This document shows, one piece after another, positions 4,264-29,181 of a DNA stretch of 52,563 nucleotides (position 1 is the first letter of the stretch; the number at the start of each line of letters is the position of its first letter). The DNA comes from Candidatus Methanophagales archaeon. Lineage in GTDB: Archaea > Halobacteriota > Syntropharchaeia > Alkanophagales > Methanospirareceae. The translations under genes were made by a program, and so were the position numbers. The DNA is taken from positions 1-52,563 of the forward strand of contig JAPDIG010000002.1 in the NCBI GenBank assembly GCA_025966525.1. The letters run 5' to 3'. The notes under the pieces are model-generated. The model did not search any database, had not been told where the DNA came from, and saw only the letters and a program-made list of their open reading frames with translations.

Positions 4264-5293
4264 AATATATTTTCCTCACAGGCCACGATATTTCAATTCC
4301 TTCTTTATCATATCGTCCCTTTAATGCCTTTATAAATTCATGCATAACTAAGTACTTTGCCACTGGTTCCTCCACGCGCAAAATAACCGAGAAGTTTATG
4401 TTTGAGTCTCCGAAAGTATGGTACCTGATGAATGGTTCAAAGGTTTTAATCGCTCCCGGGACGGTTTCCTGTATGTGCTTCGCTACATCAATCGTGACTT
4501 GCTCTACCTTCTCCAGATCCGACCCATAAGCGACACCGCACTGAACTACCGCCGCCATCTCCATGACTGGCAACGAGTTATTTACGATTATACTCTCCGC
4601 GAGTTTCGCATTTGGGACAATGACAAGTGTATTTGGCAGGGTTCGGACCCTCGTGGATCGCCAGCCAATATCTTCCACAAACCCGGAAGGACCTCCCTCT
4701 ATGTCTATAAAATCCCCAACATTTATGGGTCGGTCTGTGATAATATGTAATCCTGCGAAAAGGTTTGAAAGCGTATTTTGAAGTGCCAGTGCAACTACTA
4801 AGCCACCTAAACCAAAAGCAGCGAGTAAAGGACTTATTTCTATCTCAAAATGGTCCATAATCATTAAAAAAGCTATTAAATAGACGACAGTTGCAACCAC
4901 ACTGCTCATCAATTTCGGCATCCGCTCAAATTTCTTCTGCACCCTCAGCCACCTACTTATCAGAACGCCCAAAATCCGGGATACAATCAAAGATAGCAAC
5001 AATACCGTACCAACAAAAAATACCGCATCTATCTTCGCAGAGAAGGGTGCAAGAACCGATAGAGATTTCAATGCGAAATAAAAGCCTGCGAAAAAGATAA
5101 AAATACATAACGGTTTTGTAATTATTTTCAATATGATATCATCAATATCGGTCTTTGTTCGAGCTGCAAATGCCTTAAGGTATATTACGAGGACAAAATG
5201 AACTATTTTGGTGAGAATAGCGAAGCTTGCCAGAATTAACACGAATTGAAAATATTCATTCCAAATCAAACTCTCTATTTCTATCACCGCCAT
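4253..5293 (-). CDS. Small-conductance mechanosensitive channel (MscS family)
   Basis: 346-aa ORF with several N-terminal TM helices. It then shows the MscS signature region LQNTLSNLFAGLHIITDRPINVGDFI..G..G.VEDIGWRSTRVRTLPNTLVIVPN. Confidence 0.8.
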   Translation of the reverse strand: MAVIEIESLIWNEYFQFVLILASFAILTKIVHFVLVIYLKAFAARTKTDIDDIILKIITKPLCIFIFFAGFYFALKSLSVLAPFSAKIDAVFFVGTVLLLSLIVSRILGVLISRWLRVQKKFERMPKLMSSVVATVVYLIAFLMIMDHFEIEISPLLAAFGLGGLVVALALQNTLSNLFAGLHIITDRPINVGDFIDIEGGPSGFVEDIGWRSTRVRTLPNTLVIVPNAKLAESIIVNNSLPVMEMAAVVQCGVAYGSDLEKVEQVTIDVAKHIQETVPGAIKTFEPFIRYHTFGDSNINFSVILRVEEPVAKYLVMHEFIKALKGRYDKEGIEISWPVRKIYYAK

Positions 5294-5422
5294 ATTTTTA
5301 TTGTATTTTGAGCTTAGATATTAGAGTTTGTTTAGACCTGAACTCTGCCTCACCACCCCACAAGTCCAGCAGGTAGAGTGCTTAGATGCTATACCACCGC
5401 GGAGCAGATTATATTTGAGCAT

Positions 5423-5680
5423 TCACTCCCCTGAAGTCGCATATATTTCATAAGGCATTATCTTCTTATTTACCTTTTTCTTCCCTTTCAACTTACTTAC
5501 GAGGTCGGCGGCTTTCTCCTTCTTCTCGCGCTTCTTCAACCGCTCCAATATAGTTGCCATCTCTTTTTCTTTCTCTGCACCGCCGTATTCCTTCTCTTCC
5601 TCTTTTACATATCCCTCTTCCTCTTCTATTTCCTCTTCTTCCCCTTCCATTCCTTCAAAAACCATTACATCCACAACCAC
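5423..5680 (-). CDS. Small, highly charged protein ending in SGE; candidate Pup-like modifier
   Basis: 85-aa ORF with a GTG start at 5680, preceded by GGGGG about 10 nt upstream; an alternative ATG lies at 5665. The N-terminal half is Glu-rich, the centre is Lys-rich, and the C-terminus is MPYEIYATSGE followed by the stop. It sits 68 nt downstream of the second Pup-ligase-family gene on the same strand. It is low-complexity, so coding status rests mainly on context. Confidence 0.45.
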   Translation of the reverse strand: MVVDVMVFEGMEGEEEEIEEEEGYVKEEEKEYGGAEKEKEMATILERLKKREKKEKAADLVSKLKGKKKVNKKIMPYEIYATSGE

Positions 5681-5748
5681 TTTGACTCAACCCCCTTATT
5701 ATCTTTTATTTTTTTTTTTGATCAAACTTTCTTCTAAAGTAAGTTTGT

Positions 5749-7329
5749 TTAATAAATTATCTTGTCAGGATATAACCCTTTTGCTGCCGATAAAATCTCC
5801 TCTATTTCTCTTCCCTCTGTCATTTCCGCCCACATTTCTTCCTTATTCAACATGAACGGTTCGTCCAGCATTATTTTCGCCTCATTAAGCACCATCGTTG
5901 ACCAGCTTACACTCTTCACATGCGGCCCATACCTTTTCAACAGCTCAGCTTTGAAAAATTCTCTCGTTTGCTCCGGTGCATTACTCAGCGCGTATTTCAC
6001 TCTATCCGGTAGGGAAGACCAATCAACTTGCGGCAATTCCCGCTTTGCGAATGTCAGCGACTCCTTCGGATTGAAAAGGCAACTGCCTTTCAGACTTTCC
6101 TCTCCATCCCCGAGGTAATACATCACACTTTCATCCAACAATGCATATTGGTTACAGATGCTTATTCCTTCGGAAGCGCTTTTCGGCTCGTAATTCACAA
6201 GCAATGCCAATTTCGTCACCCAGTCTATCCCATCCACGCATTCTTCCACATGCCGAGCTTCCAGCTTCTTTATCACTTCCTTTAAACATTTTCTCCCTAT
6301 TCTATCCCATTTCCCTTCTACTCCCTTCTCTTCGTACATCTTCTCTATTGCTTCGAGATAAAATAGTAGAATGGAAACAGCGTCTGTCCTACTGCCGTCC
6401 TTCAACTTTATCTTCCACTCGCATTCCTGCGTATCCAGTGATATTTTCTTGAACGCACTCACCGGGTCTTCTATCTCCGGAGCGTCATCCAGGAACCCCA
6501 ATTCAAATGCACAAATTACCATTGCTTGCGCAATATCACGCAAGAAAATTGCGTATTCAGAACGAAGTGCTTCGTAATGTATATCGTGCAGTCGCCAGTA
6601 TTTGCGTGCAGCATGAGGTTGGTCTCTCGTGTTTAAGATACCCCTGCTAACGGTGGTGGAAAGAGAAGATTTTTGAACAACAAACATCGCTCTTGGCGAA
6701 ATAACGAACTTCACGCCCTCTTTTCCAATGGTCTTCCCAGAAACGACATCGCCTGACCCAGTGAACAATATCCTTGTAACAACCCAGGGTATTAGCGCTT
6801 TTTCTACACGACTCCAATCCTCACACGCTTCCCTTTTTGTTATTATATTCCCGTGCGTGGCGTATGTATTGGTATTTACTTTTTCCCCTTTTCCTATGTG
6901 TACGCCACTGCTAACAGCGCGACTGAAAAAATTGGCGACATTATTTTTATGAATAGCTACTTTTTTTTTCAAAGCCCGGCTCGCCTCTTTTGAGCCTATA
7001 AAAGCGTATATCTCCGATGCTTTATCGTATGCCACGGCATCAAAGGGGTTATTGTAAGAAGGCGTGGATATTTCAAGATGTCCCATATCGTTGTAAATCC
7101 GGCAGCCATTCTCACCAAACGAAGACGCGATTCTCGCTTCGTGCGCTTCCTGTGATACTTCGGTGGCGGTGTCCCACTTCACATCGTGTGAAAATCGTCT
7201 TCTTTTTAAACCCTGAATCGCGGCGTTAACGAGCAAGGATGGATTTAAACCCGCTTTTGCAGTCACTGGATATTCCTGCTCCACCCCTCTTATCTTATTC
7301 TCCGTCCCTTCCCCAACTCCCTTCCTCAT
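5749..7329 (-). CDS. Pup-ligase/deamidase family protein (PafA/Dop-like), paralogue B
   Basis: 526-aa ORF. Its blocks match PafA motifs as I recall them: GVEQEY (GIETEF), ENGCRIYNDMGHLEISTP ([20 protein letters not shown]), LIPWVVTRILFTGSGDV (LPFLVTRQLICGAGKV) and ILNTRDQPHAARKYWRLHDI (INTRDEPHADAEKYRRLH). Confidence 0.85.
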   Translation of the reverse strand: MRKGVGEGTENKIRGVEQEYPVTAKAGLNPSLLVNAAIQGLKRRRFSHDVKWDTATEVSQEAHEARIASSFGENGCRIYNDMGHLEISTPSYNNPFDAVAYDKASEIYAFIGSKEASRALKKKVAIHKNNVANFFSRAVSSGVHIGKGEKVNTNTYATHGNIITKREACEDWSRVEKALIPWVVTRILFTGSGDVVSGKTIGKEGVKFVISPRAMFVVQKSSLSTTVSRGILNTRDQPHAARKYWRLHDIHYEALRSEYAIFLRDIAQAMVICAFELGFLDDAPEIEDPVSAFKKISLDTQECEWKIKLKDGSRTDAVSILLFYLEAIEKMYEEKGVEGKWDRIGRKCLKEVIKKLEARHVEECVDGIDWVTKLALLVNYEPKSASEGISICNQYALLDESVMYYLGDGEESLKGSCLFNPKESLTFAKRELPQVDWSSLPDRVKYALSNAPEQTREFFKAELLKRYGPHVKSVSWSTMVLNEAKIMLDEPFMLNKEEMWAEMTEGREIEEILSAAKGLYPDKIIY

Positions 7330-7336
7330 TATGCCA

Positions 7337-9145
7337 TTATATCTCTTCTTCCTCTTCCTTACACCTCTTCTCCGCCCTGCTTATCTCTTCTATCTGATCC
7401 GTTATCCTGTCCTCATCCCATCCATCCAGTTCATCAAATCTATAAGTTTTGTTATTAGAATACAGCAAATAGTCCAAATAAGGATTCCTGACGATTCTGT
7501 TTCTTATTTCACGGCTTATCTCCTCCTCCCAGCCCCTTATGTCCTCTTCCTCCGCCAGAAGTCGCACAAGAACTTGCCTTGTCGCTTCGCCCCTTCTCCT
7601 CTCACGTAAAAACACCACCACTGCACTCGGCATCCTCGCAAGTTCCGGATACCTTTCAAATAGCCTTGAATATTCCTCACCACTTGGTCTGCCCATGTCT
7701 ATCTTTATCTTTGGCTCCCTGTTTATCGTTATCTTATTCCAGCTTAGTGCAGCATTATCAAATTCTGATGCGAGTCTTACCCTCAGCTCTGCTCTGGAAT
7801 TCTTTGGAGGAAATAACAACGCTTCTCCTATCTCCTCTTCTGTTAGTACTCGCTCCGCCCCTATCCTATCCGCTACGCGCTCGTATAGGTCATAATTACA
7901 AAGATTGGTGAAATCAAACGAAGCTGCTATCTCTTTCTCCACTTGCTCATCCATCATGTAGATGCTCCGGTAATCAAATTTACCCTTTGATGTGTATTCA
8001 TATTCAAAATCATCTATTTCATTCTTTATCACCCATAACTTCATCACCCATTCCAGACGCCGCATCACGTATGGGTCCTCAAGCAATCCCTGCCTGAACT
8101 TATCACAAAGCCTCTTAAACGTATCCAAAACATATTTGTCCCAGTAAGATGTCTCTCGTTCCTCAAACAACTCCTCTATTACCGCAAGATAACCCGCCTC
8201 AAGGTAATCAATCGCTAACTCAGTCCTCCCATTTGTTAACTTTATCCGCCAATCACCTTCGGTATTCGTCGAGATGTCTTTAAATGTTTGAAGTGGATTC
8301 CAGATGTCATCTACATGCGAGAGCTTACCGGTTTCTATTGCGTCCAATACATAGGATGTAAGTGCATTATTGAGCAGCCGTGTAACCTCAGAGCGAACAC
8401 CCTCACCTGATGTAATATGCACACGGTATTTATCTTTTGTACTCAACGGCTCGTCACGTGTCGATAATATCGGCCACTGTGAAGGTGATTCAGTGAGAAC
8501 CCGCTTCGAAACCATCGCTTTCGGTGAAATCACATATTTCAACCCTTCTTTCTCTGCTATAAATCCGCCAGCGCCAAAGAATATCTTCCGAAGTACTAAA
8601 AATGGTATGAGCAAATTCTCTTTACCCACAAATTTCCTCCTCTCTACCAGGTATGATTCGTGCGTGCCCCTGCTATATCTCTTGTCTATCTCCACATTTG
8701 CTTTCCAGCATTGGATGTATGTGGTGTCATTCCCTCTTTTCCTTAACTTCTTCCTGTATCTTTCGTTTGCTTTTTCCACTCCTATCTGCATGTATAACTC
8801 TGCCGCTTTATCATATTTCAGCACCTCAAAGGCGTTTCTGCATTCAGGCGTGGCTATCTCCAGGTGACCGCCGGTGCAGATGTAAATCCGAGAGCCATTT
8901 CTCAAAAAGCCATCGTTCCTCCTCCGCAACTTCGAGCATATCGCGTCCGTTCCATCAAAAAAAGTATAATTCTCAAGCGCACGAATCACTTCATCTACAT
9001 GATAAAATCTCGCATATCTGTACAAGCCGGGCGATTCTGAACTTATGCCGACTCTAAATTCGTGCTCCAACCCTTGCCATTTGTTCAAATCGTCCCCCAT
9101 TTTTTTAAAAATGCATTCCTGTTTCTTCTTCTGGCATTCCCTCAT
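7337..9145 (-). CDS. Pup-ligase/deamidase family protein (PafA/Dop-like), paralogue A
   Basis: 602-aa ORF with blocks GLEHEF, RNGSRIYICTGGHLEIATPEC, GTHESYL, LIPFLVLRKIFFGAGGF and ILSTRDEPLSTKDKYRVHI. The first ATG (9145) overlaps the upstream ATPase gene by 41 nt. An internal ATG at 9100 (MGDDLNKW) would begin 4 nt after the ATPase stop codon and may be the true start. Confidence 0.85.
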   Translation of the reverse strand: MRECQKKKQECIFKKMGDDLNKWQGLEHEFRVGISSESPGLYRYARFYHVDEVIRALENYTFFDGTDAICSKLRRRNDGFLRNGSRIYICTGGHLEIATPECRNAFEVLKYDKAAELYMQIGVEKANERYRKKLRKRGNDTTYIQCWKANVEIDKRYSRGTHESYLVERRKFVGKENLLIPFLVLRKIFFGAGGFIAEKEGLKYVISPKAMVSKRVLTESPSQWPILSTRDEPLSTKDKYRVHITSGEGVRSEVTRLLNNALTSYVLDAIETGKLSHVDDIWNPLQTFKDISTNTEGDWRIKLTNGRTELAIDYLEAGYLAVIEELFEERETSYWDKYVLDTFKRLCDKFRQGLLEDPYVMRRLEWVMKLWVIKNEIDDFEYEYTSKGKFDYRSIYMMDEQVEKEIAASFDFTNLCNYDLYERVADRIGAERVLTEEEIGEALLFPPKNSRAELRVRLASEFDNAALSWNKITINREPKIKIDMGRPSGEEYSRLFERYPELARMPSAVVVFLRERRRGEATRQVLVRLLAEEEDIRGWEEEISREIRNRIVRNPYLDYLLYSNNKTYRFDELDGWDEDRITDQIEEISRAEKRCKEEEEEI

Positions 9146-10739
9146 ACCCTGATGCTAATATCTCCTCTGCTCTTCGCTGCACAAACTTGTCAAAACCTTC
9201 TTTCAGGTGCCTCATGTTCACTCCTATTTCTTCTACGCGTTTGTACCGCTTCTGCAGTTCTTCCGTCTTGCTTCCTGCATCCAATATCGCTGCGATTCCC
9301 TCCTTATCCCACATCCTCCTCATATCCTCGTTGTTGATAATTCCTTTTTTAAGCATCAGCAATGTCCTCTCCTCTAACGCCTTGTCCCTCGCATAGTTGA
9401 ATATCTGCGCTATAAACCTCCCGGTTATCGTATCTGCTCTCTTTATCCTCCCTATTTCTGTCTCAACGTACTTATCACTGTACATGTAGCCAATAATCTC
9501 CTTCACCAGATGTGACCTCGCCTCTTCTTCTCCTCCTTCTTCCTTTATCAGGTAGTGGTCAATAGGAATTTTTTTAGCATAGAGCGAGGCAATGGAAGAC
9601 GCAGCTTCCTTATCCGGCTTTGGAACCTCAATTATCTTGTCAAATCTCGCTCTGAATGCGGAATCTATGAGGTACAATCTGTTCGTTGCTCCTACCACCG
9701 TAAGGTGTGGATGCAGAGCATGGAAACCTTCCAACAGGTCCAGCAGTTGCCCGGTGACTCTCTCTGGTGCTCCGGAAGAGCCAGTGTACATGCCCCTTTC
9801 CTGTGCTAACGCATCTATCTCGTCAAAGAAGATTACACCATAGTCATTTTCTCCTTCTTCTAATTTAGCGTTCGCTGCCTCAAACACCATCCGTACATTC
9901 TTCTCTGATTCCCCAAGCCACATGCTGAAAAGTTCCCCCGCGCCTACCTTCACAAATTCACAGTTTGGTAGTGCAGATGCCAATGCCTTTGCACACATCG
10001 TTTTACCGCAGCCTGGAGGACCATACATTAATATTCTCCGAGAACATTCTCCATATTTTGTGTAATCATCAGGGTTTATCATCGGAAGAATAATACTCTT
10101 TATCAATTCCTGTTTTATCTCCTTTAAACCGCCTATGTCATTAAAGCTCACCCCTGGATTCTTTGTGACTTCGTAGCGGGAGAGTTCTTTTGCCTTGTAA
10201 CACTTCTTTATGTCAAACGTGCCTGGAAGAAGCCCCACTTTCATCCCCTCTTTTACCATTTCCTTTTCTTCTTCGCTTAGCCTTTTGTAGAGCCTGCCGC
10301 GTCCTTTCCCGGTTGATATTTCTCCGACCCAGCCCTCGTCGTCCTTCCTTAACTCCTCTATCTCTCCCACCTCTAAATCTACCATCCTATCATACACCTT
10401 TGTGATGCCTATGGTAAATCCACTGGGGTTATTTCTGTCGGGGATGCGTCCGATGAACACATATTTGCCTTCTTTCAGCTCTTCTATTTCTTTCCCGGTA
10501 AGCGTCCCGTAGGGTAAAGCCTTTAATGCACCATTCAAATTCACAATAGCACCTTCTTCAGTCTTTTCTACTACGAATCCACAGTCCAAAGGTGGCGACC
10601 TCGATTTTGATACAAGTTTCTCCAAATCCGCTTTATACGCTTCCGTCTCCTCGTATTTCCTCATCAACCGTCGGTAGTCGCTCTCTAACCGTTCATACTC
10701 GTATCTTGGAATATAGTCTCCTCTTTCTTCCATTTTCAA
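9105..10739 (-). CDS. AAA+ ATPase with coiled-coil and OB-like N-domain (Mpa/ARC-like proteasomal-type unfoldase)
   Basis: 544-aa ORF with an N-terminal heptad-rich helix (YEYERLESDYRRLMRKYEETEAYKADLEKLVSK) followed by beta-rich segments. It has Walker A GPPGCGKT, Walker B VIFFDEIDAL, pore-loop-like MWLG and sensor VVGATNR. A long helical C-terminal extension resembles the Mpa post-AAA region. The likely true start is the ATG at 10733, preceded by GGGGA; the ORF track begins at a TTG at 10739. Confidence 0.85.
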   Translation of the reverse strand: MKMEERGDYIPRYEYERLESDYRRLMRKYEETEAYKADLEKLVSKSRSPPLDCGFVVEKTEEGAIVNLNGALKALPYGTLTGKEIEELKEGKYVFIGRIPDRNNPSGFTIGITKVYDRMVDLEVGEIEELRKDDEGWVGEISTGKGRGRLYKRLSEEEKEMVKEGMKVGLLPGTFDIKKCYKAKELSRYEVTKNPGVSFNDIGGLKEIKQELIKSIILPMINPDDYTKYGECSRRILMYGPPGCGKTMCAKALASALPNCEFVKVGAGELFSMWLGESEKNVRMVFEAANAKLEEGENDYGVIFFDEIDALAQERGMYTGSSGAPERVTGQLLDLLEGFHALHPHLTVVGATNRLYLIDSAFRARFDKIIEVPKPDKEAASSIASLYAKKIPIDHYLIKEEGGEEEARSHLVKEIIGYMYSDKYVETEIGRIKRADTITGRFIAQIFNYARDKALEERTLLMLKKGIINNEDMRRMWDKEGIAAILDAGSKTEELQKRYKRVEEIGVNMRHLKEGFDKFVQRRAEEILASGYEGMPEEETGMHF

Positions 10740-14841: not shown

Positions 14842-16032
14842 CTAACGTCTACACTTTGCAAGAAATACAACCACCGCAATAGCAATCACTGCGAATATCA
14901 GTTCGAAACCTGGTGGCTTTGGTGTAGGTGCAGGTGTTTCCGCTGGTGTAGGTGCAGGTGTTTCCGCTGGTATTTCTACTGCTAAGACCCTGTTAATCGT
15001 CTCTTGTGGTATAAAAGAGCCACCTTCACCGAGTATCTCTCCTTCACAACCTTTACAGAGCACTTCTGGGTTTTCATGGCACTCTGCGCATTCCTTTGCC
15101 TTATCTGTAACTGTATGCGGGAACCATGCACCATACCCTGTGTGTGTCGCATTGTCATAAGCAGCAGTCATGTTCATGAACGGTTTTATCTTACCATCAG
15201 CACCGATAGCAAGATGGAAATCGTCAATCACTACTTTCGTTCCCTTTCTGGTATCTAAGTGGCAGTTTACACATTTTGGTGCCCATCCCGTGTGACATGC
15301 AGTACAGTCGAGTTTATCACCGTGTATCTTATGCGCACTTACATCTGGTGAATACTGTGTCACCGGCATTCCCTTGACCGTCTTTCCAGGGCTTTTGTGG
15401 CAATCCTCGCATGACGTCTTGACCGCCTCAAGCTGGCTGGCTACTGCTTCCCCTGAACCATGCATATCTTCCGCGGTATGGCAGTCCGTGCACGTAAGCC
15501 CCTTCTCATAGTGAATATCCGCGGGGTGTGCTACTTCGGCTCCTTCTATCGGAATCTTGCCATGTGCTGGAATCTCCCCTACAAAGGTTGAAGTTTGTTT
15601 CTTGAAGTGGCACTGGTCACATGTCGGCATATTCTTGCTCAAATCTTCCTTATGCGGGTCTTCTCCATGGCACTTTTCGCAGGTGGTAGCATGGCATTTG
15701 GAACAGTTCCACTTCGCATAATACTCATCCATATCAATTCCGAAATGCTTTGCCGCATACTTCTCGTATTCGCCCTTCATCCCCGCGCCGGTGTAATGTA
15801 GCGAAGTCGTAAAGTTTTCAATAACACCAGAATGACAGCTACAACCTCCGAACTCTTCCCCCGCCGCAATCGCTACGCTCACCAGTGATACTGATAACAC
15901 TACGAAAATCATCAAAGGCAATATCTTCTTTACTATCTTCGCTATTGTAGATTTACAAGGGTCTGCGTATCCTGCATTTCCATCTGTTTTTGGCATTTTC
16001 TTCTCCTCCCTAACAAATATCCAGTATTTCAA
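14842..16032 (-). CDS. Multihaem c-type cytochrome with PGF-CTERM archaeal sorting signal
   Basis: 396-aa ORF; the start may be the ATG at 15996 (MPKTDG). It has an N-terminal signal-anchor and eight CxxCH motifs (CSKCH, CEKCH, CDQCH, CTDCH, CEDCH, CTACH, CVNCH, CAECH) plus one CSCH. The C-terminus is a Thr/Pro linker (AETPAPTPAETPAPTP), then KPPGFELIFAVIAIAVVVFLAKCRR (PGF motif, TM helix, basic tail). Confidence 0.85.
   Translation of the reverse strand: MKYWIFVREEKKMPKTDGNAGYADPCKSTIAKIVKKILPLMIFVVLSVSLVSVAIAAGEEFGGCSCHSGVIENFTTSLHYTGAGMKGEYEKYAAKHFGIDMDEYYAKWNCSKCHATTCEKCHGEDPHKEDLSKNMPTCDQCHFKKQTSTFVGEIPAHGKIPIEGAEVAHPADIHYEKGLTCTDCHTAEDMHGSGEAVASQLEAVKTSCEDCHKSPGKTVKGMPVTQYSPDVSAHKIHGDKLDCTACHTGWAPKCVNCHLDTRKGTKVVIDDFHLAIGADGKIKPFMNMTAAYDNATHTGYGAWFPHTVTDKAKECAECHENPEVLCKGCEGEILGEGGSFIPQETINRVLAVEIPAETPAPTPAETPAPTPKPPGFELIFAVIAIAVVVFLAKCRR
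14921..14968. repeat. Perfect 24-nt tandem duplication inside the cytochrome linker
   Basis: ggtgtaggtgcaggtgtttccgct occurs twice back to back (14921-14944 and 14945-14968). It encodes AETPAPTP twice on the minus strand. Confidence 0.9.
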
Positions 16033-16180: not shown

Positions 16181-17614
16181 CTAACTCGGTAATCCCGCTT
16201 TTTCAAGTTCTTTTGTTATTTCTCCTCTGATGTTCACTGATAGTATTTTATTCTTTTGCCCCGGGATTCCCAGTGGTAGCATCACTTCTCTTCCTGGACT
16301 ACAAGCCCAACATGCCGCATTAGCGTCTAAAACCTCGCCACTTGTATTAAGTAACTGTACATAGAAGACATTGCCGGAAGGCATTATGCCCAAATATGGA
16401 ACCGGAATGCTGAAATTAAATGTACTATTATACCCCGCTGGTACCGGCACTGAGGTTACTGTTGGAACCCAAATGGTATACTGTGGGATTCCCCAGTAAC
16501 ATTGGAACGTTACGTTTTTCTGAGTTGGATTTGTGATGCTGATGGTAATTGTCATCGTGTCACCCGGCGAGTATTTGAATTTATCTGTGGCGACTGTGAC
16601 TGTTGGTTTACGTTTATGAGCACCGATTATCCTATCTATTACTTCTTGTGGAATAAAAGAACCACCTTCGCCAAGTATCTCTCCTTCACAGCCTTTGCAG
16701 AGCACTTCTGGATTTTCATGGCAGTCTGCGCATTCCTTTGCCTTATCTGTAACTGTATGTGGGAACCATGCACCATACCCTGTGTGTGTCGCATTGTTAT
16801 AAGCAGAAGTCATGTTTATGAACGGTTTTATCTTACCATCAGCACCGATAGCAAGATGGAAATCATCAATCACTACTTTCGTTCCCTTCCTGGTGTCTAA
16901 GTGACAGTTTACACATTTTGGTGCCCATCCTGTGTGACATGCAGCACAGTCAAGTTTATCCCCGTGTATTCTGTGCGACTGCGTATCGTTTGAATACTGA
17001 GTCACCGGCATGCCCTTGACCGTCTTTCCAGGTTTTTTGTGGCAATCCTCACACGATATACTCACTGCTTCAAGCATCGTGCTATATTCAACACCCGTAC
17101 CGTGCATATCTTCCGCGGTATGGCACTCTGTGCATGTAAGCCCCTTCTGGTAGTGGATATCCGCCGGATGTGGTACTTCGGGTCCTTCTATCGGAACCTT
17201 GCCATGTGCTGGAGTCTCCCCAATAAAGATCGAGGTCTGTTTCTTAAAGTGGCACTGGTCGCATGTCGTCATATTCTTACTCAAATCTTCCATAACATGC
17301 GGGAACTGATATCCTATATGGCACTTTTCGCAGGTGGTAGCATGGCATTTGGAACAGTTCCACTTCGCATAATACTCATCCATATCAATTCCGAAATGCT
17401 TTGCCGCATACTTCTCGTATTCGCCCTTCATCCCCGCGCCGGTGTAATGGAGCGAAGTCGTAAAATTATCGGCAATCTCTCTATGACACATCGCACAACT
17501 TCCGAAGTCTTCCGCTACTATCGATACATTAGCCAACAAAATGGAAAGCACTGCAACTATCATCACTGGCAATATTTTCTTTACCAATATTCTACACTTT
17601 TTTCGCATTTTCAC
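16181..17614 (-). CDS. Multihaem c-type cytochrome with C-terminal Ig-like domain
   Basis: 477-aa ORF with an N-terminal signal-anchor and nine CxxCH motifs (CAMCH, CSKCH, CEKCH, CDQCH, CTECH, CEDCH, CAACH, CVNCH, CADCH). The haem domain is a close paralogue of 14842-16032. The C-terminal ~130 aa resemble the C-terminus of the ORF at 105-1028. Confidence 0.85.
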   Translation of the reverse strand: MKMRKKCRILVKKILPVMIVAVLSILLANVSIVAEDFGSCAMCHREIADNFTTSLHYTGAGMKGEYEKYAAKHFGIDMDEYYAKWNCSKCHATTCEKCHIGYQFPHVMEDLSKNMTTCDQCHFKKQTSIFIGETPAHGKVPIEGPEVPHPADIHYQKGLTCTECHTAEDMHGTGVEYSTMLEAVSISCEDCHKKPGKTVKGMPVTQYSNDTQSHRIHGDKLDCAACHTGWAPKCVNCHLDTRKGTKVVIDDFHLAIGADGKIKPFINMTSAYNNATHTGYGAWFPHTVTDKAKECADCHENPEVLCKGCEGEILGEGGSFIPQEVIDRIIGAHKRKPTVTVATDKFKYSPGDTMTITISITNPTQKNVTFQCYWGIPQYTIWVPTVTSVPVPAGYNSTFNFSIPVPYLGIMPSGNVFYVQLLNTSGEVLDANAACWACSPGREVMLPLGIPGQKNKILSVNIRGEITKELEKAGLPS

Positions 17615-26133: not shown

Positions 26134-29100
26134 TTGTTCAGCACGATGAAAACAGCAGTTTCCAAAATACGCAAAAGAGATGGTCGAGTTGTAGAATTCG
26201 AGCATGAGAAAATCACAAACGCCATTTACAAAGCGCTGGTTAGTGTTGGCATAGAAGAAGAAGGCAGAGAGCAAGAGCTTGCAAAAGAGCTAACTGAAAA
26301 GGTGGTGTTTGAACTTGAAAAGTCGTTTGCCGCAAGAGCCAGAATTCCATCAGTTGAAGATGTGCAGGATGTAGTAGAGCATGTGCTGATCGCAGAAGGA
26401 TTTAGCGAAGTTGCGAAAGCGTATATTTTATATCGCCAGCAGCGTGCAGATATTCGCGGTCTAAAGAAATTTATAGGTGTTACGGATGATTTAAAGCTTT
26501 CATTGAATGCCGTAGAGGTATTGAAAAGAAGATACCTGTTAAAGAACGAACTCGGAGAAGTCATCGAGACCCCAGGTCAAATGTTCGAGCGTGTGGCAAA
26601 AGCAATAGCACGAGCGGAATTGAATTATGGTAAAAGCAAAGGCGAGGCAAAGGAAATTGAACGCAGATTTTACCTGCTAATGCGTGATTTAGAATTCCTG
26701 CCCAACAGTCCTACATTAATGAATGCAGGAACAGAACTCGGGCAGCTCGCTGCTTGTTTCGTTCTACCAGTTGAGGATTCGATAGAAGGTATATTTGGTG
26801 CGGTTAAGAACATGGCGAAGATTCACCAAAGCGGCGGTGGAACCGGATTCTCTTTCTCAAGGCTGAGACCAAAGGGAGATGTGGTAAAGTCAACAGGGGG
26901 AATCGCCTCAGGTCCCGTCTCTTTCATGCGTGTTTTTGACGTTGCCACGGATGTAATCAAGCAAGGAGGCAAGAGAAGAGGCGCGAATATGGGCATATTG
27001 AACGTCGAACACCCAGACATTCTGGAATTTATAAGAGCGAAAGCTCGAGGAGGATTTGCCAATTTCAATATCTCCGTAGCTGTTACTGATGAATTCATGC
27101 GTGCAGTGGAGAGAAACGATGAATATGGGCTCATAAATCCCCGCACGAAAGAAGAAGTGAGAAAAATCAATGCGAGAGAAGTTTTTAACGAGATTGTAAC
27201 CTATGCATGGAAGACGGGAGACCCAGGGATCGTTTTTATGGATGAGATAAATCGCTGTAATCCTATTCCCGCGATTGGGAAGATAGAGGCAACTAATCCG
27301 TGCGTAACCGCTGATACATGGGTAATGACTGCTGAGGGTCCGAGACAGGTTGAAGAATTAATTGGTAAAAAGTTTACTGCAATTGTAAACGGCGAGAAAT
27401 GGGAGAGTTCAGGAGAAGGATTCTTTGAGACCGGGGTGAAACCAGTTTACAGATTGAAGACCGCAGAAGGATTTGAATTGCATCTGACGGTAGATCACCC
27501 GGTTATGAGAGTGGAGAGAAAGACAAGATATAAAATTGTGACGCAATGGAGCAATGCAGGGGATTTGAAGCCCGGCGATAAAATTATCATCAACAATCAC
27601 AGAGATTTTGGTAATTGGAACGTTAAGGGCAAATATACGGAATCTGAAGGCTATTTAATGGGTTTGCTCTTAGGAGATGGTACGATTAAAAAATTAAATT
27701 CTGGGCTGAAGGCAATTAGCAATAAAATGGAGAAAGCATCTGTGGATTTCTGCGGAGGTCTGCTAAGAGGGTTATTTGATGCAGATGGCTCGGTTCAAGG
27801 AAATCAATCGAAAGGTGTTAGTGTAAGACTGGCTCAGAGCGATATTGAGATTCTCAAGTCGGTTCAGCGTATGCTTTTACGATTTGGAATATTCTCGAGG
27901 ATTTATATGAATAGGAGAGGAGAAAGGAAGGTGAAAATGCCCGATGGGAAAGGGGGGATAAAAGAGTATATTACAAAACCTCAGCACGAATTGGTAATTT
28001 CCAAAGAGAACATATTGTATTTCGCTGAAAGGGTTGGATTTGATGATTCAGAGAAAATGGAAAAACTTGAAAAGGCTATATGGAATTACAAACGGAAAAT
28101 GAATCGAGAGCGGTTTGTAGCATCCGTAGAGGAAGTAGTTCCAGAGGGCATAGAAAAGGTTTATGATGTTCAAATTCCGGGAATAAATGCTTTTGATGCG
28201 AATGGATTCTATGTGCATAATTGTGGTGAGCAGCCACTCTTACCGTACGATTCATGCAATTTAGGCTCGATAAATGTTTCAAAATTTGTCAAAAACGGGG
28301 GGAGCAGCGAAATAGACTGGGAAAGGCTTAGAGAGGTAATCTGGATTTCTGTGAGGTTTTTAGATGATGTCATAGATGTGAACAGGTATCCATTGCCTGA
28401 GATAGAGCACATGACAAAAGCGAACAGAGGGATAGGGCTTGGAATAATGGGATTTGCAGAACTGTTAATCAAGCTTGGGATTGCGTATGATTCAAAGGAT
28501 GCACTTTCGCTGGGTGAAAAGCTAATGCGATTCATTACAAATGAAGCGCGGCAGTGTTCAGCACAGCTCGGGCTCGAAAGAGGGTCTTTTCCCAACTTCG
28601 AACTCAGCATTTGGAACGCTAAATACGAAGCAATGCGAAATGCCACGGTAACCACCATCGCACCAACGGGAACAATAAGTATAATTGCGAGCTGCTCCAG
28701 TGGAATAGAGCCTATATTCGCTGTTGCATTTGTTCGGAACGTAATGGGAGGAATGCTGGAGATAAACAAGTTGTTTGAGGATATAGCGAAGGAAAAGGGC
28801 TTTTACAGCAAAGATTTGATCGCGGAGATTGCAAAATGCGGCTCAATACAGGATATTGAAGGAATCCCAGAAGATATTAAAAGGATATTTGTTACTGCGC
28901 TTGACATCTCGCCGGAATGGCATGTGCGAATGCAAGCAGCATTTCAGAAATATACGGACAATGCGACATCAAAAACAGTGAATCTGCCGAGCGATGTAAC
29001 GTGGGGCAATGTAAAAAAGGTGTTTTTATTGGCTTACAAGCTTAAGTGTAAGGGTATTACTGTTTACCGATATGGAAGTAAAGAGCAGGTTCTGTCGCTG

Positions 29101-29181
29101 GATATTCCAAAACTCATGCTTGAGGAGTATGTATGCGCTGATTCGGAATACACAGGCGAGTGCAGGATATGTTCGGTATAA
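26134..29181 (+). CDS. nrdJ: Adenosylcobalamin-dependent (class II) ribonucleotide reductase with ATP-cone, interrupted by an intein
   Basis: 1015-aa ORF with an N-terminal ATP-cone (KIRKRDGRVVEFEHEKITNAIYKA). RNR blocks include FLPNSPTLMNAG, ACFVLPVEDS and SGGGTGFSFSRLRP. The finger-loop motif TNP/CGEQ is split by the intein. C-terminal redox cysteines are present (CADSEYTGECRICS). The start could be Met5 (MKTAVSK). Confidence 0.9.
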   Translation: MFSTMKTAVSKIRKRDGRVVEFEHEKITNAIYKALVSVGIEEEGREQELAKELTEKVVFELEKSFAARARIPSVEDVQDVVEHVLIAEGFSEVAKAYILYRQQRADIRGLKKFIGVTDDLKLSLNAVEVLKRRYLLKNELGEVIETPGQMFERVAKAIARAELNYGKSKGEAKEIERRFYLLMRDLEFLPNSPTLMNAGTELGQLAACFVLPVEDSIEGIFGAVKNMAKIHQSGGGTGFSFSRLRPKGDVVKSTGGIASGPVSFMRVFDVATDVIKQGGKRRGANMGILNVEHPDILEFIRAKARGGFANFNISVAVTDEFMRAVERNDEYGLINPRTKEEVRKINAREVFNEIVTYAWKTGDPGIVFMDEINRCNPIPAIGKIEATNPCVTADTWVMTAEGPRQVEELIGKKFTAIVNGEKWESSGEGFFETGVKPVYRLKTAEGFELHLTVDHPVMRVERKTRYKIVTQWSNAGDLKPGDKIIINNHRDFGNWNVKGKYTESEGYLMGLLLGDGTIKKLNSGLKAISNKMEKASVDFCGGLLRGLFDADGSVQGNQSKGVSVRLAQSDIEILKSVQRMLLRFGIFSRIYMNRRGERKVKMPDGKGGIKEYITKPQHELVISKENILYFAERVGFDDSEKMEKLEKAIWNYKRKMNRERFVASVEEVVPEGIEKVYDVQIPGINAFDANGFYVHNCGEQPLLPYDSCNLGSINVSKFVKNGGSSEIDWERLREVIWISVRFLDDVIDVNRYPLPEIEHMTKANRGIGLGIMGFAELLIKLGIAYDSKDALSLGEKLMRFITNEARQCSAQLGLERGSFPNFELSIWNAKYEAMRNATVTTIAPTGTISIIASCSSGIEPIFAVAFVRNVMGGMLEINKLFEDIAKEKGFYSKDLIAEIAKCGSIQDIEGIPEDIKRIFVTALDISPEWHVRMQAAFQKYTDNATSKTVNLPSDVTWGNVKKVFLLAYKLKCKGITVYRYGSKEQVLSLDIPKLMLEEYVCADSEYTGECRICSV
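27301..28221 (+). mobile_element. Intein (307 aa) in the RNR finger loop, with a degenerate LAGLIDADG endonuclease domain
   Basis: It starts with Cys (CVTADTWV, block A) and has block B LTVDHPVM. LAGLIDADG-like motifs are YLMGLLLGDGT and LLRGLFDADGS, only about 35 aa apart. Blocks F/G are VYDVQIPGINAFDANGFYVHN, followed by the +1 Cys of CGEQ. Confidence 0.85.

Follow-up and report, generated by a model that had tools for sequence, protein, structure and literature searches.

The last gene of a four-gene operon in a Candidatus Methanophagales archaeon encodes a protein of 85 residues. This protein is probably a small, largely disordered protein modifier acting like bacterial Pup. We refer throughout to the window, a stretch of 52,563 nucleotides of contig JAPDIG010000002.1. 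A sequence-only reading of the window had proposed the modifier. The proposal is supported by a Gly-[Glu/Gln] end that is conserved in syntenic loci of three archaeal groups.

A small gene downstream of two PafA/Dop homologues

The candidate gene lies on the minus strand at 5423..5680, between a GTG start codon (5680-5678) and a stop codon (5423-5425). The ORF listing gives its product as MVVDVMVFEGMEGEEEEIEEEEGYVKEEEKEYGGAEKEKEMATILERLKKREKKEKAADLVSKLKGKKKVNKKIMPYEIYATSGE, with the C-terminus ...YEIYATSGE. The operon runs, on the same strand, from a PAN-like AAA ATPase through two Pup_ligase (PF03136) genes, PafL and DopL, to the small ORF. A gap of 68 nt separates the small ORF from DopL, the second Pup_ligase gene. 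A Shine-Dalgarno-like GGGGG (5691..5695, minus strand) is placed 10 nt from the GTG. This element, AAGGGGGTTGAGTxAAA-GTG (AAGGGGGTTGAGT-AAA GTG), is kept in 10 related loci (L001, L002 and L004-L011). Elements of GGAGG or GAGGTG type are found 5' of the equivalent ORFs in other lineages. Counts from a promoter and terminator scan of 5200-5800, by a method not covering archaeal promoters, were at chance level. The protein contains 22 Glu and 16 Lys. Net charge is -13 for residues 1-33, +9 for residues 34-73 and -2 for residues 74-85. The earlier description of this ORF is confirmed in all parts. It named the 85 residues, the GTG start, the Gly-Glu end, the GGGGG some 10 nt upstream, the site directly downstream of the ligase paralogues and the polyampholyte layout of an acidic N-terminal part and a basic, Lys-rich centre. 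The strand, which it left unstated, is minus.

Homologues fall into 76 protein clusters from ANME-1-type archaea, with 30-45 near-invariant residues at the C-terminus. All 76 end in YAT[SA]G[EQ]; the last residue is E in 73 and Q in 3. Bathyarchaeia and Methanomethylicota carry, right behind the enzyme pair, an ORF of 27-63 aa ending ...VVAPPG[E/Q]. The terminus PG[EQ] is present in 107/107 of these Thermoproteota clusters (56 Q, 51 E). Common to the ANME-1-type tag and the Thermoproteota mini-ORFs is the pattern E-[IV]-[YVI]-A-x-x-G-[EQ], anchored at the C-terminus. Homology between the two families was not demonstrable by hhalign (probability 0.5%). In public databases, the 183 tag clusters are unnamed or 'hypothetical', save one labelled 'ribosomal protein L4'. 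The enzymes carry the annotation 'PafA2 family protein'.

We compared the final 30 codons of the ORF in 13 loci. Codon differences were synonymous in 690 cases and non-synonymous in 112, and all four Gly codons are in use at the penultimate Gly. The substitution pattern proves that the small ORF is a real gene whose protein is under purifying selection.

Starting from the enzymes, we could assess 39 loci from three archaeal groups; in 35 of them, the second Pup_ligase gene is immediately followed by an ORF ending G-[EQ]. The background rate is 1.0% of ORFs of at least 25 aa in the 43 loci; at this rate, the binomial probability of 35/39 is ~5e-49. In Thermoproteota, the mini-ORF starts between -4 and +11 nt from the second Pup_ligase stop, a spacing suggestive of translational coupling. 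Six-frame reading of ~600 kb showed the C-terminal motif a single time in each locus and at no other place. In the reverse direction, five of six look-ups from the tag side adjoin a Pup_ligase gene. The enzyme pair is present at P0179, P0183, P0038 and P0072. At P0068 one Pup_ligase gene was seen, and the contig begins just upstream of it. The sixth, P0182, is an orphan mini-ORF with MtrH and ThiF genes as neighbours. Four ANME-clade loci with the enzyme(s) present (L007, L012, L015 and L017) have no small ORF within 8 kb. A six-frame search of these four, L013 and L032 with the tag profile gave no match. The sequence-only reading would have counted as refuted had syntenic loci not kept the small ORF or its G-E end; both are strongly conserved.

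These results bear on the reading in which the ORF is no real gene, or encodes an unrelated small basic protein (nucleic-acid-binding or ribosome-associated) that merely shares the operon. Its Lys/Arg-rich centre, the single 'ribosomal protein L4' label and a weak profile resemblance to bS20 would fit such a protein. However, the tag profile retrieved from the PDB only weak matches to charged helices (bS20 and others, E 0.1-0.5), which are of low complexity. Against 1.84 billion representative proteins, the ANME-1 tag profile found its own family (4 representative clusters) and one truncated relative only. Synteny with the enzyme pair across three archaeal groups and the proof of selection on the protein also argue against this reading. 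It is very improbable and already largely refuted.

The ATPase gene is present in 16/16 ANME-1-clade loci that reach far enough upstream, and in 12/12 genome loci bearing the long tag. None of the Thermoproteota loci, which bear the mini-tags, has it. The long form, with its basic helix segment, is confined to lineages with an AAA gene in the operon. By sequence judgement, the clusters of Methanomethylicota and some Bathyarchaeia adjoin genes resembling 2-oxoacid:ferredoxin oxidoreductase subunits; Pfam matches beside one cluster (POR_N, Transketolase_C, PFOR_II and Fer4) back this identity. No biosynthetic genes are kept beside the cluster across all three archaeal lineages. A defence-system reading was rejected, since PADLOC matches were limited to generic AAA, with none for the enzymes or the tag.

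Predicted structure of the tag and comparison with known modifiers

The tag can be divided into three segments, all encoded on the minus strand. Residues 1-33 (5582..5680) form an acidic, poly-Glu segment, whose length and sequence vary among the 76 homologues. Residues 34-70 (5471..5581) are predicted to form a basic, Lys-rich helix, a putative docking element for the coiled coil of the ATPase. The C-terminal 15 residues, NKKIMPYEIYATSGE (aa 71-85, 5426..5470), would bind the enzymes. The terminal Glu (5426-5428) is the proposed reactive residue. Invariant in 64 aligned sequences are I74, P76, Y77, E78, I79, Y80, A81, T82 and G84. AF2, run on the free chain with the 64-sequence alignment, placed a helix at 34-70 (pLDDT about 70-82) and a short helix at 76-83, with pLDDT <50 at residues 1-3 and 5-33. 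The earlier expectation of a chain that is disordered or helical agrees with this model: residues 1-33 are predicted to be disordered and the two remaining elements helical. By analogy with Pup, residues 1-33 may be the region where threading initiates. Trypsin would leave IMPYEIYATSGE of the window tag on a modified lysine, a computed mass shift of +1354.6115 Da. The mini-tag remnants EHSEVVAPPGE and EHREVVAPPGE have computed shifts of +1131.5196 and +1200.5887 Da, respectively.

The Pup models PF05639 and TIGR03687 did not match the window ORF, three ANME-type homologues or four Thermoproteota mini-ORFs at E<=10. As a control, M. tuberculosis Pup scored 79.7 and 74.7 bits. The profiles of both archaeal tag families scored ~0 bits against Pup. 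UBact, a Pup-like tag, occurs in several phyla of Gram-negative bacteria and, to our knowledge, has been described in bacteria only. Its model, NF033388, did not match the archaeal ORFs at E<=10, and scored 77.6 and 84.2 bits with two UBact-like control sequences. Against these sequences, the archaeal tag profiles scored ~0 bits. By sequence, then, the tag is a member of neither family. The suggestion that a tag at this site would form a new sequence class is borne out, with positive controls at 75-84 bits.

Likeness to the Pup system is found at other levels. The archaeal tags are small and end Gly-[Gln/Glu], with the alternation of E and Q seen in Pup, and the window tag is predicted to be largely disordered. 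The existence of both PupQ and PupE stems from the use of the side-chain carboxylate as reactive group (PMC8599861). Like Pup, the archaeal tag is encoded beside two homologous enzymes of the glutamine-synthetase fold (PF03136) and, in the ANME-1 operon only, beside an AAA ATPase with coiled-coil and OB regions. The predicted layout of the window tag, a disordered N-terminus, a helix and a short C-terminal segment, is also that of Pup, and the fold and catalytic residues of Dop are present in DopL.

There are clear differences. The known systems are bacterial (Actinobacteria, Nitrospirae), whereas this host is an archaeon. Pup ends Gly-Gly-Gln/Glu; the archaeal tags keep the penultimate Gly and the E/Q but not the di-glycine, and end Ser/Ala-Gly-Glu/Gln (ANME-1 type) or Pro/Ser-Gly-Glu/Gln (Thermoproteota). 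Pup is acidic but the window tag is basic and Lys-rich, a composition that lends itself to self-ligation and implies a binding groove of different charge. Where the catalytic Asp would stand, PafL has Cys or His, and the archaeal ATPase is PAN/Cdc48-like without the GQYL tail of Mpa/ARC. The actinobacterial gene order is mpa-dop-pup-prcBA-pafA, unlike the archaeal order of ATPase, enzyme, enzyme and tag. With UBact, the archaeal system shares a short basic tag adjoining PafA/Dop homologues. The two UBact-like sequences end Thr-Gly-Glu, close to the Thr-Ser-Gly-Glu of the window tag.

Archaea also have SAMPs, Urm1-type proteins and the Caldiarchaeum ubiquitin. These are lysine-linked tags, some tied to proteasomal turnover. 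They have a beta-grasp fold, end Gly-Gly and are adenylated by E1/ThiF-type enzymes via the main-chain carboxylate. Conversely, the window tag ends Gly-Glu and has a predicted structure of helix and disorder, and its operon contains glutamine-synthetase-fold enzymes and no E1.

The enzyme pair and the ATPase

DopL (526 aa; 5749..7329, minus strand) and PafL (602 aa; 7337..9145, minus strand) score 226.9 and 200.8 bits, respectively, with PF03136, for which the gathering cut-off is 25 bits. The likely true start of PafL is Met16 at 9100, 4 nt past the AAA stop. DopL is the more Dop-like of the two. It scores 200 bits with the Dop equivalog TIGR03688 and 140 bits with that for PafA. PafL scores 160.5 bits with the PafA equivalog TIGR03686 and 155.6 bits with Dop. 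Both enzymes, together with eight further archaeal proteins, fall well short of the cut-offs of the two equivalogs, which are 492 and 551; a bacterial Dop control scored 524.7. In the PDB, DopL matched Dop (E=1.7e-37). The AF2 model of DopL (pLDDT 91.9) has its best fold match in 7oxy, a Dop-Pup complex (TM 0.78/0.86), compared with TM 0.70/0.75 for the PafA fold. YbdK and GCS are the next-best matches. The window enzymes are genuine proteins of the PafA/Dop fold.

Neither paralogue varies at the metal-binding Glu residues. DopL has the canonical active-site residues (E17, E19, D81, H84, E86, H159 and R186), and all loci whose contig covers that region show the motif NGxRxY[ND]DxxH[LF]E. PafL has PafA-like spacing in the catalytic strand and, in the alignment, an extra C-terminal insert of ~110 aa. 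Its segment RIYICTGGHLEIATPEC aligns with RLYLDVGSHPEYATAEC of C. glutamicum PafA; the 4BJR fusion has N at the Asp in question. Here PafL has Cys90, and Cys occupies the position in 17/17 ANME-1-clade loci with PafL. Elsewhere the residue is His, in one Bathyarchaeia group, or Asp with a 6-aa insert. The Arg of the TRDEPHA motif is lost in some PafL lineages. Because PafL lacks the catalytic Asp, one paralogue may be non-canonical or inactive.

In a rough NJ tree, both archaeal paralogues fall in one clade (73% support), apart from bacterial PafA and Dop. Tentatively, the archaeal pair may thus come from a duplication separate from that of PafA and Dop. We abandoned an orthology-based assignment of which paralogue ligates and which depupylates: by HMM score DopL leans to Dop and PafL is ambiguous, and the paralogues share a clade. 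Given this grouping and the scores below cut-off, the name 'ligase paralogues' used by the sequence-only reading, and labels of PafA or Dop orthology, need care.

The small protein could instead be a partner of the ATPase, the enzymes or both that is never ligated, such as an adaptor, regulator or pseudo-substrate. Loss of the canonical catalytic Asp from PafL in two lineages would suit a complex with a regulatory and not an enzymatic role. No ligation would be needed for the predicted long basic helix to bind a coiled coil, and four loci have the enzymes with no adjacent small ORF. Yet DopL keeps every canonical catalytic residue. A non-covalent role gives no reason for an invariant Gly-[Glu/Gln] with E/Q interchange across 183 clusters, and the 27-aa mini-versions retain little beyond the C-terminal motif. 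We judge this reading improbable.

A further reading is a carrier or scaffold like LysW, with the C-terminal Glu ligated to a small-molecule amine and the two enzymes loading and unloading a metabolite. LysW of Thermus and Sulfolobus is likewise a small protein, and its C-terminal ...Gly-Glu is ligated to an amine, in an ATP-dependent step, through the gamma-carboxylate. LysW combines a zinc-ribbon domain with an acidic EDWGE tail, has the ATP-grasp partners LysX/ArgX and is encoded in a biosynthetic operon. The ranking of YbdK and GCS in the fold search and the oxidoreductase-like neighbours in Methanomethylicota and some Bathyarchaeia are consistent with such a carrier. However, no biosynthetic genes accompany the cluster in all three lineages. 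The partners of the window tag are PafA/Dop-fold enzymes rather than ATP-grasp enzymes of LysX type, and the conserved ANME-1 partner is an unfoldase-type AAA ATPase. A Pfam search of the small ORF found no domain, and hence no LysW-type zinc ribbon. Some archaeal tags end in Gln, and a precursor with a terminal Gln to be deamidated is known from Pup but not from LysW. A LysW-like role is therefore a slim prospect.

The AAA+ ATPase (544 aa; 9105..10739, minus strand; PF00004) has an N-terminal coiled coil, an 'RSPPL' junction, a PAN-type OB region and one AAA module like Cdc48-D2 and PAN. With a Walker A motif at 240, a Walker B motif at 304 and, at 273, a pore loop (MWLG) of aromatic-hydrophobic-Gly type, it looks translocation-competent. 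The PAN subfamily model scored 167 bits, below cut-off, and the N-terminus matched the PAN coiled coil-OB region weakly (E 0.09). The best PDB matches are VAT/Cdc48, and the AAA module is nearer Cdc48-D2 than Mpa. Over residues 18-457, the pup_AAA model TIGR03689 gave 156 bits, below its cut-off of 504.75. In 16 loci the chain ends ...TGMH[FY], with no HbYX or GQYL proteasome-docking motif. The ATPase falls outside Mpa/ARC, which is marked by the TIGR03689 equivalog score, an N-domain of coiled coil plus double OB and a C-terminal GQYL.

A proposed pathway and its implications

We favour Pup-like modification: a last residue that switches between E and Q while the rest of the C-terminus stays fixed, in a gene next to Dop/PafA homologues, is the pattern expected of Pup-type chemistry. 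The operon layout, the Shine-Dalgarno-like element and purifying selection point to translation of the tag as the last cistron, after AAA, PafL and DopL. E/Q interchange suggests that Gly-Gln variants would first be deamidated to Gly-Glu by one PafA/Dop-family paralogue. The window tag, already ending Gly-Glu, would need no such step. If the chemistry of the family applies, one paralogue would phosphorylate the terminal Glu at its gamma-carboxylate with ATP, and the tag would be joined to the epsilon-amino group of a target lysine by an isopeptide bond. The other paralogue would remove it, as in the established chemistry of the family.

In the ANME-1 lineage, the tag would have gained the basic helix (aa 34-70) and the acidic disordered N-terminus (aa 1-33), and the operon the PAN-like coiled-coil/OB AAA ATPase. 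The co-occurrence of long tag and ATPase, together with the precedent of Pup and Mpa, suggests how these parts may work. The tag would bind the coiled coil by its helix and reach into the pore with its N-terminus, and tagged proteins would be unfolded. Unfolded proteins would probably be handed to the archaeal 20S proteasome. Bathyarchaeia and Methanomethylicota have only a minimal tag of 27-63 aa and the enzyme pair. There, tagging may be regulatory or may rely on a general unfoldase.

A bolder view is that archaea own a separate lineage of pupylation-type systems, older than or independent of the actinobacterial one. The enzyme pair would then descend from a duplication apart from that of PafA and Dop. 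The ancestral tag would have had ~30 residues, hardly anything beyond a basic stretch and ...E-V-V-A-P-P-G-E/Q. In ANME-1 archaea, a helix that binds the coiled coil and a tail for threading would have made this a full degron, and a PAN-like unfoldase would have been recruited. The paralogue with Cys or His for Asp would use a different chemistry of attachment or removal. Taken together, these propositions are unlikely.

Our literature search, covering papers outside subscription-only journals, found no paper on archaeal Pup, PafA, Dop or pupylation. A 2020 survey of PafA and Dop lists bacterial phyla only and places the origin of the pathway in Actinobacteria (PMC7947786). The abstract of a 2025 paper terms pupylation a 'unique bacterial proteolytic pathway' (PMC12053664).

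The finding would extend the known range of pupylation-type systems, which the searchable papers describe in bacteria only. At least three uncultured archaeal groups with a major part in biogeochemistry, namely ANME-1/Syntrophoarchaeia, Bathyarchaeia and Methanomethylicota, keep the complete parts list (a tag and two enzymes, with an unfoldase in ANME-1). It also exposes an annotation gap, in which the enzymes are named in public databases and practically all tag clusters are not. Natural minimal tags of 27-40 residues could serve proximity labelling of the PUP-IT type. For archaea, the system would add a protein-tagging route beside SAMPs and ubiquitin-like systems. The origin of Pup-type chemistry is reopened as a question, and a separate archaeal lineage, if true, would overturn the published placement of the pathway's origin in Actinobacteria (PMC7947786).

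A conserved operon with two Pup_ligase paralogues

The candidate tag gene (5423-5680, minus strand) is tightly packed, on a common strand, with genes for a AAA ATPase (9105-10739), PafL (602 aa; 7337-9145) and DopL (526 aa; 5749-7329). The true start of PafL is likely Met16, at 9100, 4 nt past the ATPase stop. Both PafL and DopL match the Pup_ligase family (PF03136); their names are labels of convenience only. The closest relatives of the enzymes (79-90% identity) come from MAGs labelled Methanophagales/ANME-1; together with its multihaem cytochromes, this assigns the window to an ANME-1-type archaeon. The sequence-only reading had described the small ORF as an 85-aa protein with a GTG start and a C-terminal Gly-Glu, and this was borne out. 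The gene runs from 5680 down to 5423 and ends ...KKIMPYEIYATSGE-stop. The first third is acidic (net -13), the centre basic (+9) and the short tail aromatic/hydrophobic. The Shine-Dalgarno-like GGGGG (5691-5695) lies 10 nt before the GTG, and the ORF is 68 nt past DopL, in the position after the ligase paralogues already noted. Within the 68-nt spacer, at 5696-5735 (minus strand), a run of ~14 A is followed, on the coding strand, by TAAAAGATAATAAG, directly upstream of the Shine-Dalgarno-like element. This stretch may serve as an internal archaeal promoter, boosting tag expression.

The enzymes are true members of the PafA/Dop (PF03136) family. They score 201-227 bits against PF03136, and a PDB search matched Dop (E=1.7e-37). 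The predicted structure of DopL (pLDDT 91.9, pTM 0.93) has Dop-Pup complexes as its top fold matches (TM 0.78/0.86), then PafA-Pup. Without exception in the alignment, both paralogues keep the Gly-x-Glu-x-Glu strand and the strand-end Glu, as well as His159, Arg186 and further residues of the core. Neither is an equivalog of PafA or Dop; both fall far under the cut-offs. For DopL the Dop model is favoured by 40-55 bits, and PafL is ambiguous. The Dop-type strand, NGxRxY[ND]DxxH[LF]E, is present in DopL at every locus with the region on the contig. ANME-1 PafL has PafA-type spacing but Cys in place of the catalytic Asp (RIYICTGGHLE, compared with RLYLDVGSHPE in PafA). This Cys is residue 90 of the 602-aa PafL in the window and recurs in all 17 ANME-1-clade loci carrying PafL; a distant relative, P0293, also has Cys (YLCGCHPE). 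In one Bathyarchaeia group the residue at this position is His, and the Arg before it is gone too. Elsewhere, PafL keeps the Asp and has a 6-aa insert. Asp, Cys and His are all able to act in catalysis. A rough neighbour-joining tree, built on 437 columns with 100 bootstraps and a small bacterial sample, joined PafA with Dop from bacteria (86%) and the two archaeal paralogues with each other (73%). On this basis we tentatively suggest that the archaeal duplication was separate from that of PafA and Dop.

Other genes of the window were also noted. The ribonucleotide reductase large subunit (1015 aa; 26134-29181, plus strand) is interrupted by an intein bearing a LAGLIDADG homing-endonuclease domain (Intein_splicing and LAGLIDADG_3 matches, residues 406-696). 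Two adjacent multihaem c-type cytochrome genes (14842-16032 and 16181-17614, minus strand; Cytochrome c3/c7 matches) adjoin SRP54 and a radical-SAM/SPASM gene. Such cytochromes are consistent with an ANME-type archaeon. A defence-system reading of the enzymes and the tag was rejected, with no PADLOC match in its support.

Selection and synteny of the candidate tag gene

When 5.8 billion proteins were searched by word index, 76 ANME-1-type clusters of 74-124 aa were recovered. All are unnamed or 'hypothetical', except one mislabelled 'ribosomal protein L4'. Both the length and the sequence of the acidic N-terminal part differ among them; from about residue 40 to the end they are near-identical (...REKKEKAADLVSKLKGKKKxNKKIMPYEIYAT[SA]G[EQ]). 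In a comparison of the last 30 codons across 13 loci, synonymous changes number 690 and non-synonymous ones 112; all four Gly codons occur at the penultimate position, and both Glu codons at the terminal one. The small ORF is a real gene under selection. An exhaustive HMMER search of 1.84 billion representatives with the family profile found only the family itself and one truncated relative.

Scanning 185,579 species genomes with DopL identified 43 loci: 17 from ANME-1/Syntrophoarchaeum/Alkanophaga, 16 from Bathyarchaeia and 10 from Methanomethylicota and relatives. Within the ANME-1 clade, the genes repeatedly stand in the order ATPase-PafL-DopL-small ORF. Bathyarchaeia and Methanomethylicota loci lack the ATPase; here, PafL-DopL is followed by an ORF of 27-41 aa (for example, MTEKKEDSLFPSFKKRKLKRERLTIKKEHREVVAPPGQ and MSEIALPSFKRRDKADKKLKKEHSEVVAPPGE), after a gap of -4 to +11 nt and with a GGAGG or GAGGTG element. 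Excluding three loci that end short of the relevant region and one that is N-masked, 39 of the 43 were assessable. Syntenic conservation, the check proposed with the sequence-only reading, was evident: 35 of the 39 have a G-[EQ]-ending ORF at the expected position (P ~5e-49, given a 1.0% background of such ORFs). The motif [EK][ILVM][YVILF]AxxG[EQ]-stop occurs once in the window and once in each of 28 of these 35 loci, and nowhere else in six frames; the remaining seven ORFs depart slightly from it. No tag ORF was found within 8 kb of the enzymes in four ANME-clade loci (L007, L012, L015 and L017). These include both Alkanophaga species, and L007 has DopL alone, with neither PafL nor ATPase. 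Selection and synteny together rule out an unrelated nucleic-acid-binding protein or a spurious ORF, readings to which we gave very little credence.

A profile of the short ORFs recovered 107 clusters, every one ending PG[EQ] (56 Gln, 51 Glu). In a reverse look-up of six tag proteins, five lay directly after a Pup_ligase gene and four of these after a pair; the contig of P0068 begins just upstream of its single visible Pup_ligase gene. The five include one Gln-ending ANME-1 variant and two divergent Thermoproteota forms. The sixth, P0182 (...LLKRGKIVIRKEHKLVVAPPGE; L053 5526-5660 / L054 356-490), is an orphan short tag with no Pup_ligase gene within 5 kb. An MtrH-like gene precedes it, and a divergently oriented ThiF (E1-like) gene and FdhD adjoin.

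Other features of these loci were observed. The contig of L026 (DATLAV010000181.1), titled 'Patescibacteria group bacterium', is probably mis-binned; its PafL, DopL, short tag and neighbours group with Bathyarchaeia L021, L022 and L042. In Methanomethylicota and one Bathyarchaeia group (L033-L043, L018, L023, L025 and L044; for example, L034 9777-13265) two further features adjoin PafL-DopL-tag. The first, a conserved protein of 95-105 aa, has weak matches to double-psi beta-barrel models (Molydop_binding / CDC48_N) and ends EEKYEPPP in Methanomethylicota. The other is a conserved gene run that, judged from the sequences, resembles a 2-oxoacid:ferredoxin oxidoreductase cluster; Pfam matches in L044 (POR_N, Transketolase_C, PFOR_II and Fer4) back this reading. 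The proximity may reflect a functional link or merely inherited gene order.

Probable Pup-like chemistry and relation to known modifiers

Species whose Pup gene specifies a C-terminal Gln require prior deamidation by Dop (PMC8599861). Since the archaeal tags always end in Glu or Gln after an invariant Gly, and their genes are closely linked to those of two PafA/Dop homologues, the data point to Pup-like chemistry. Such a terminus beside such enzymes is what this chemistry predicts, and would otherwise be hard to explain. A non-covalent adaptor is unlikely, leaving both the E/Q terminus and the 27-aa forms unexplained. We think it quite improbable that the protein is a LysW-like carrier, with its terminal Glu ligated to a small-molecule amine; conserved biosynthetic neighbours are absent, and neither the unfoldase nor Gln-ending precursors are accounted for. 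As a Pup-like modifier, the tag could also be ligated to itself, because it is Lys-rich.

The suggestion of a new sequence class stood. Archaeal tags had no match to Pup or UBact models at E<=10, and are set apart from both families by sequence. Controls scored well on their own models (M. tuberculosis Pup, 75-80 bits; two UBact-like sequences, 77-84 bits). Archaeal profiles gave ~0 bits against Pup and these UBact-like sequences. Profile comparison of the ANME-1 and Thermoproteota tags yielded no significant match; what they have in common is limited to a basic stretch and, after it, E-[IV]-[YVI]-A-x-x-G-[EQ].

A 2020 phylogenetic survey listed bacterial phyla only and placed the origin in Actinobacteria (PMC7947786). 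In openly searchable full texts we came across no description of archaeal PafA, Dop or Pup; this scope is the main uncertainty over priority. In the NCBI pipeline the archaeal enzymes already go by 'proteasome accessory factor PafA2 family protein', and so can be seen in databases. With one exception, the 183 tag clusters are unnamed or 'hypothetical'. The enzyme family, and probably its chemistry, is shared with known pupylation. What appears new is the domain of life, the tag sequence classes, the different ATPase and the changed catalytic residue of one paralogue.

The ATPase and the long candidate tag of ANME-1

The ATPase N-terminus has a coiled coil, a PAN-typical 'RSPPL' junction and an OB region (weak match); the pup_AAA model aligned to residues 18-457. 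Its single AAA module is nearest VAT/Cdc48 D2 in the PDB. Walker A and Walker B are intact, and the pore loop, SMWLGESE (MWLG), is of the Cdc48/VAT D2 kind. The protein looks like a mosaic of a PAN-type coiled coil/OB N-domain and a Cdc48/VAT D2-like AAA module. A C-terminal helical extension of ~150 aa ends in a conserved TGMH[FY], which is neither an HbYX nor a GQYL motif; any docking on the 20S proteasome would therefore be hypothetical.

For the tag, AF2 predicts residues 1-33 to be disordered, followed by a long helix (34-70) and a short one (76-83). When bound to Mpa, Pup has its disordered N-terminus in the pore and a helix packed on the coiled coil. On this prediction, the layout of the tag would be the same. 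In ANME-1-clade PafL, the C-terminal domain carries an insert of ~110 aa (~aa 480-590; EPKIKIDMGRPSGEEYSRLFERYPELARMP...NPYLDYLLYSNNKTYRFDELDGW) that is absent from Thermoproteota PafL and has no Pfam match. The lineages with this insert are those with the ATPase and long tag. Long tags occur only where the operon has an ATPase (12/12 genome loci), and tags of 27-63 aa where it is absent. Because long tag and ATPase co-vary, which is the best available evidence, the ANME-1 protein would be an unfolding or degradation tag.
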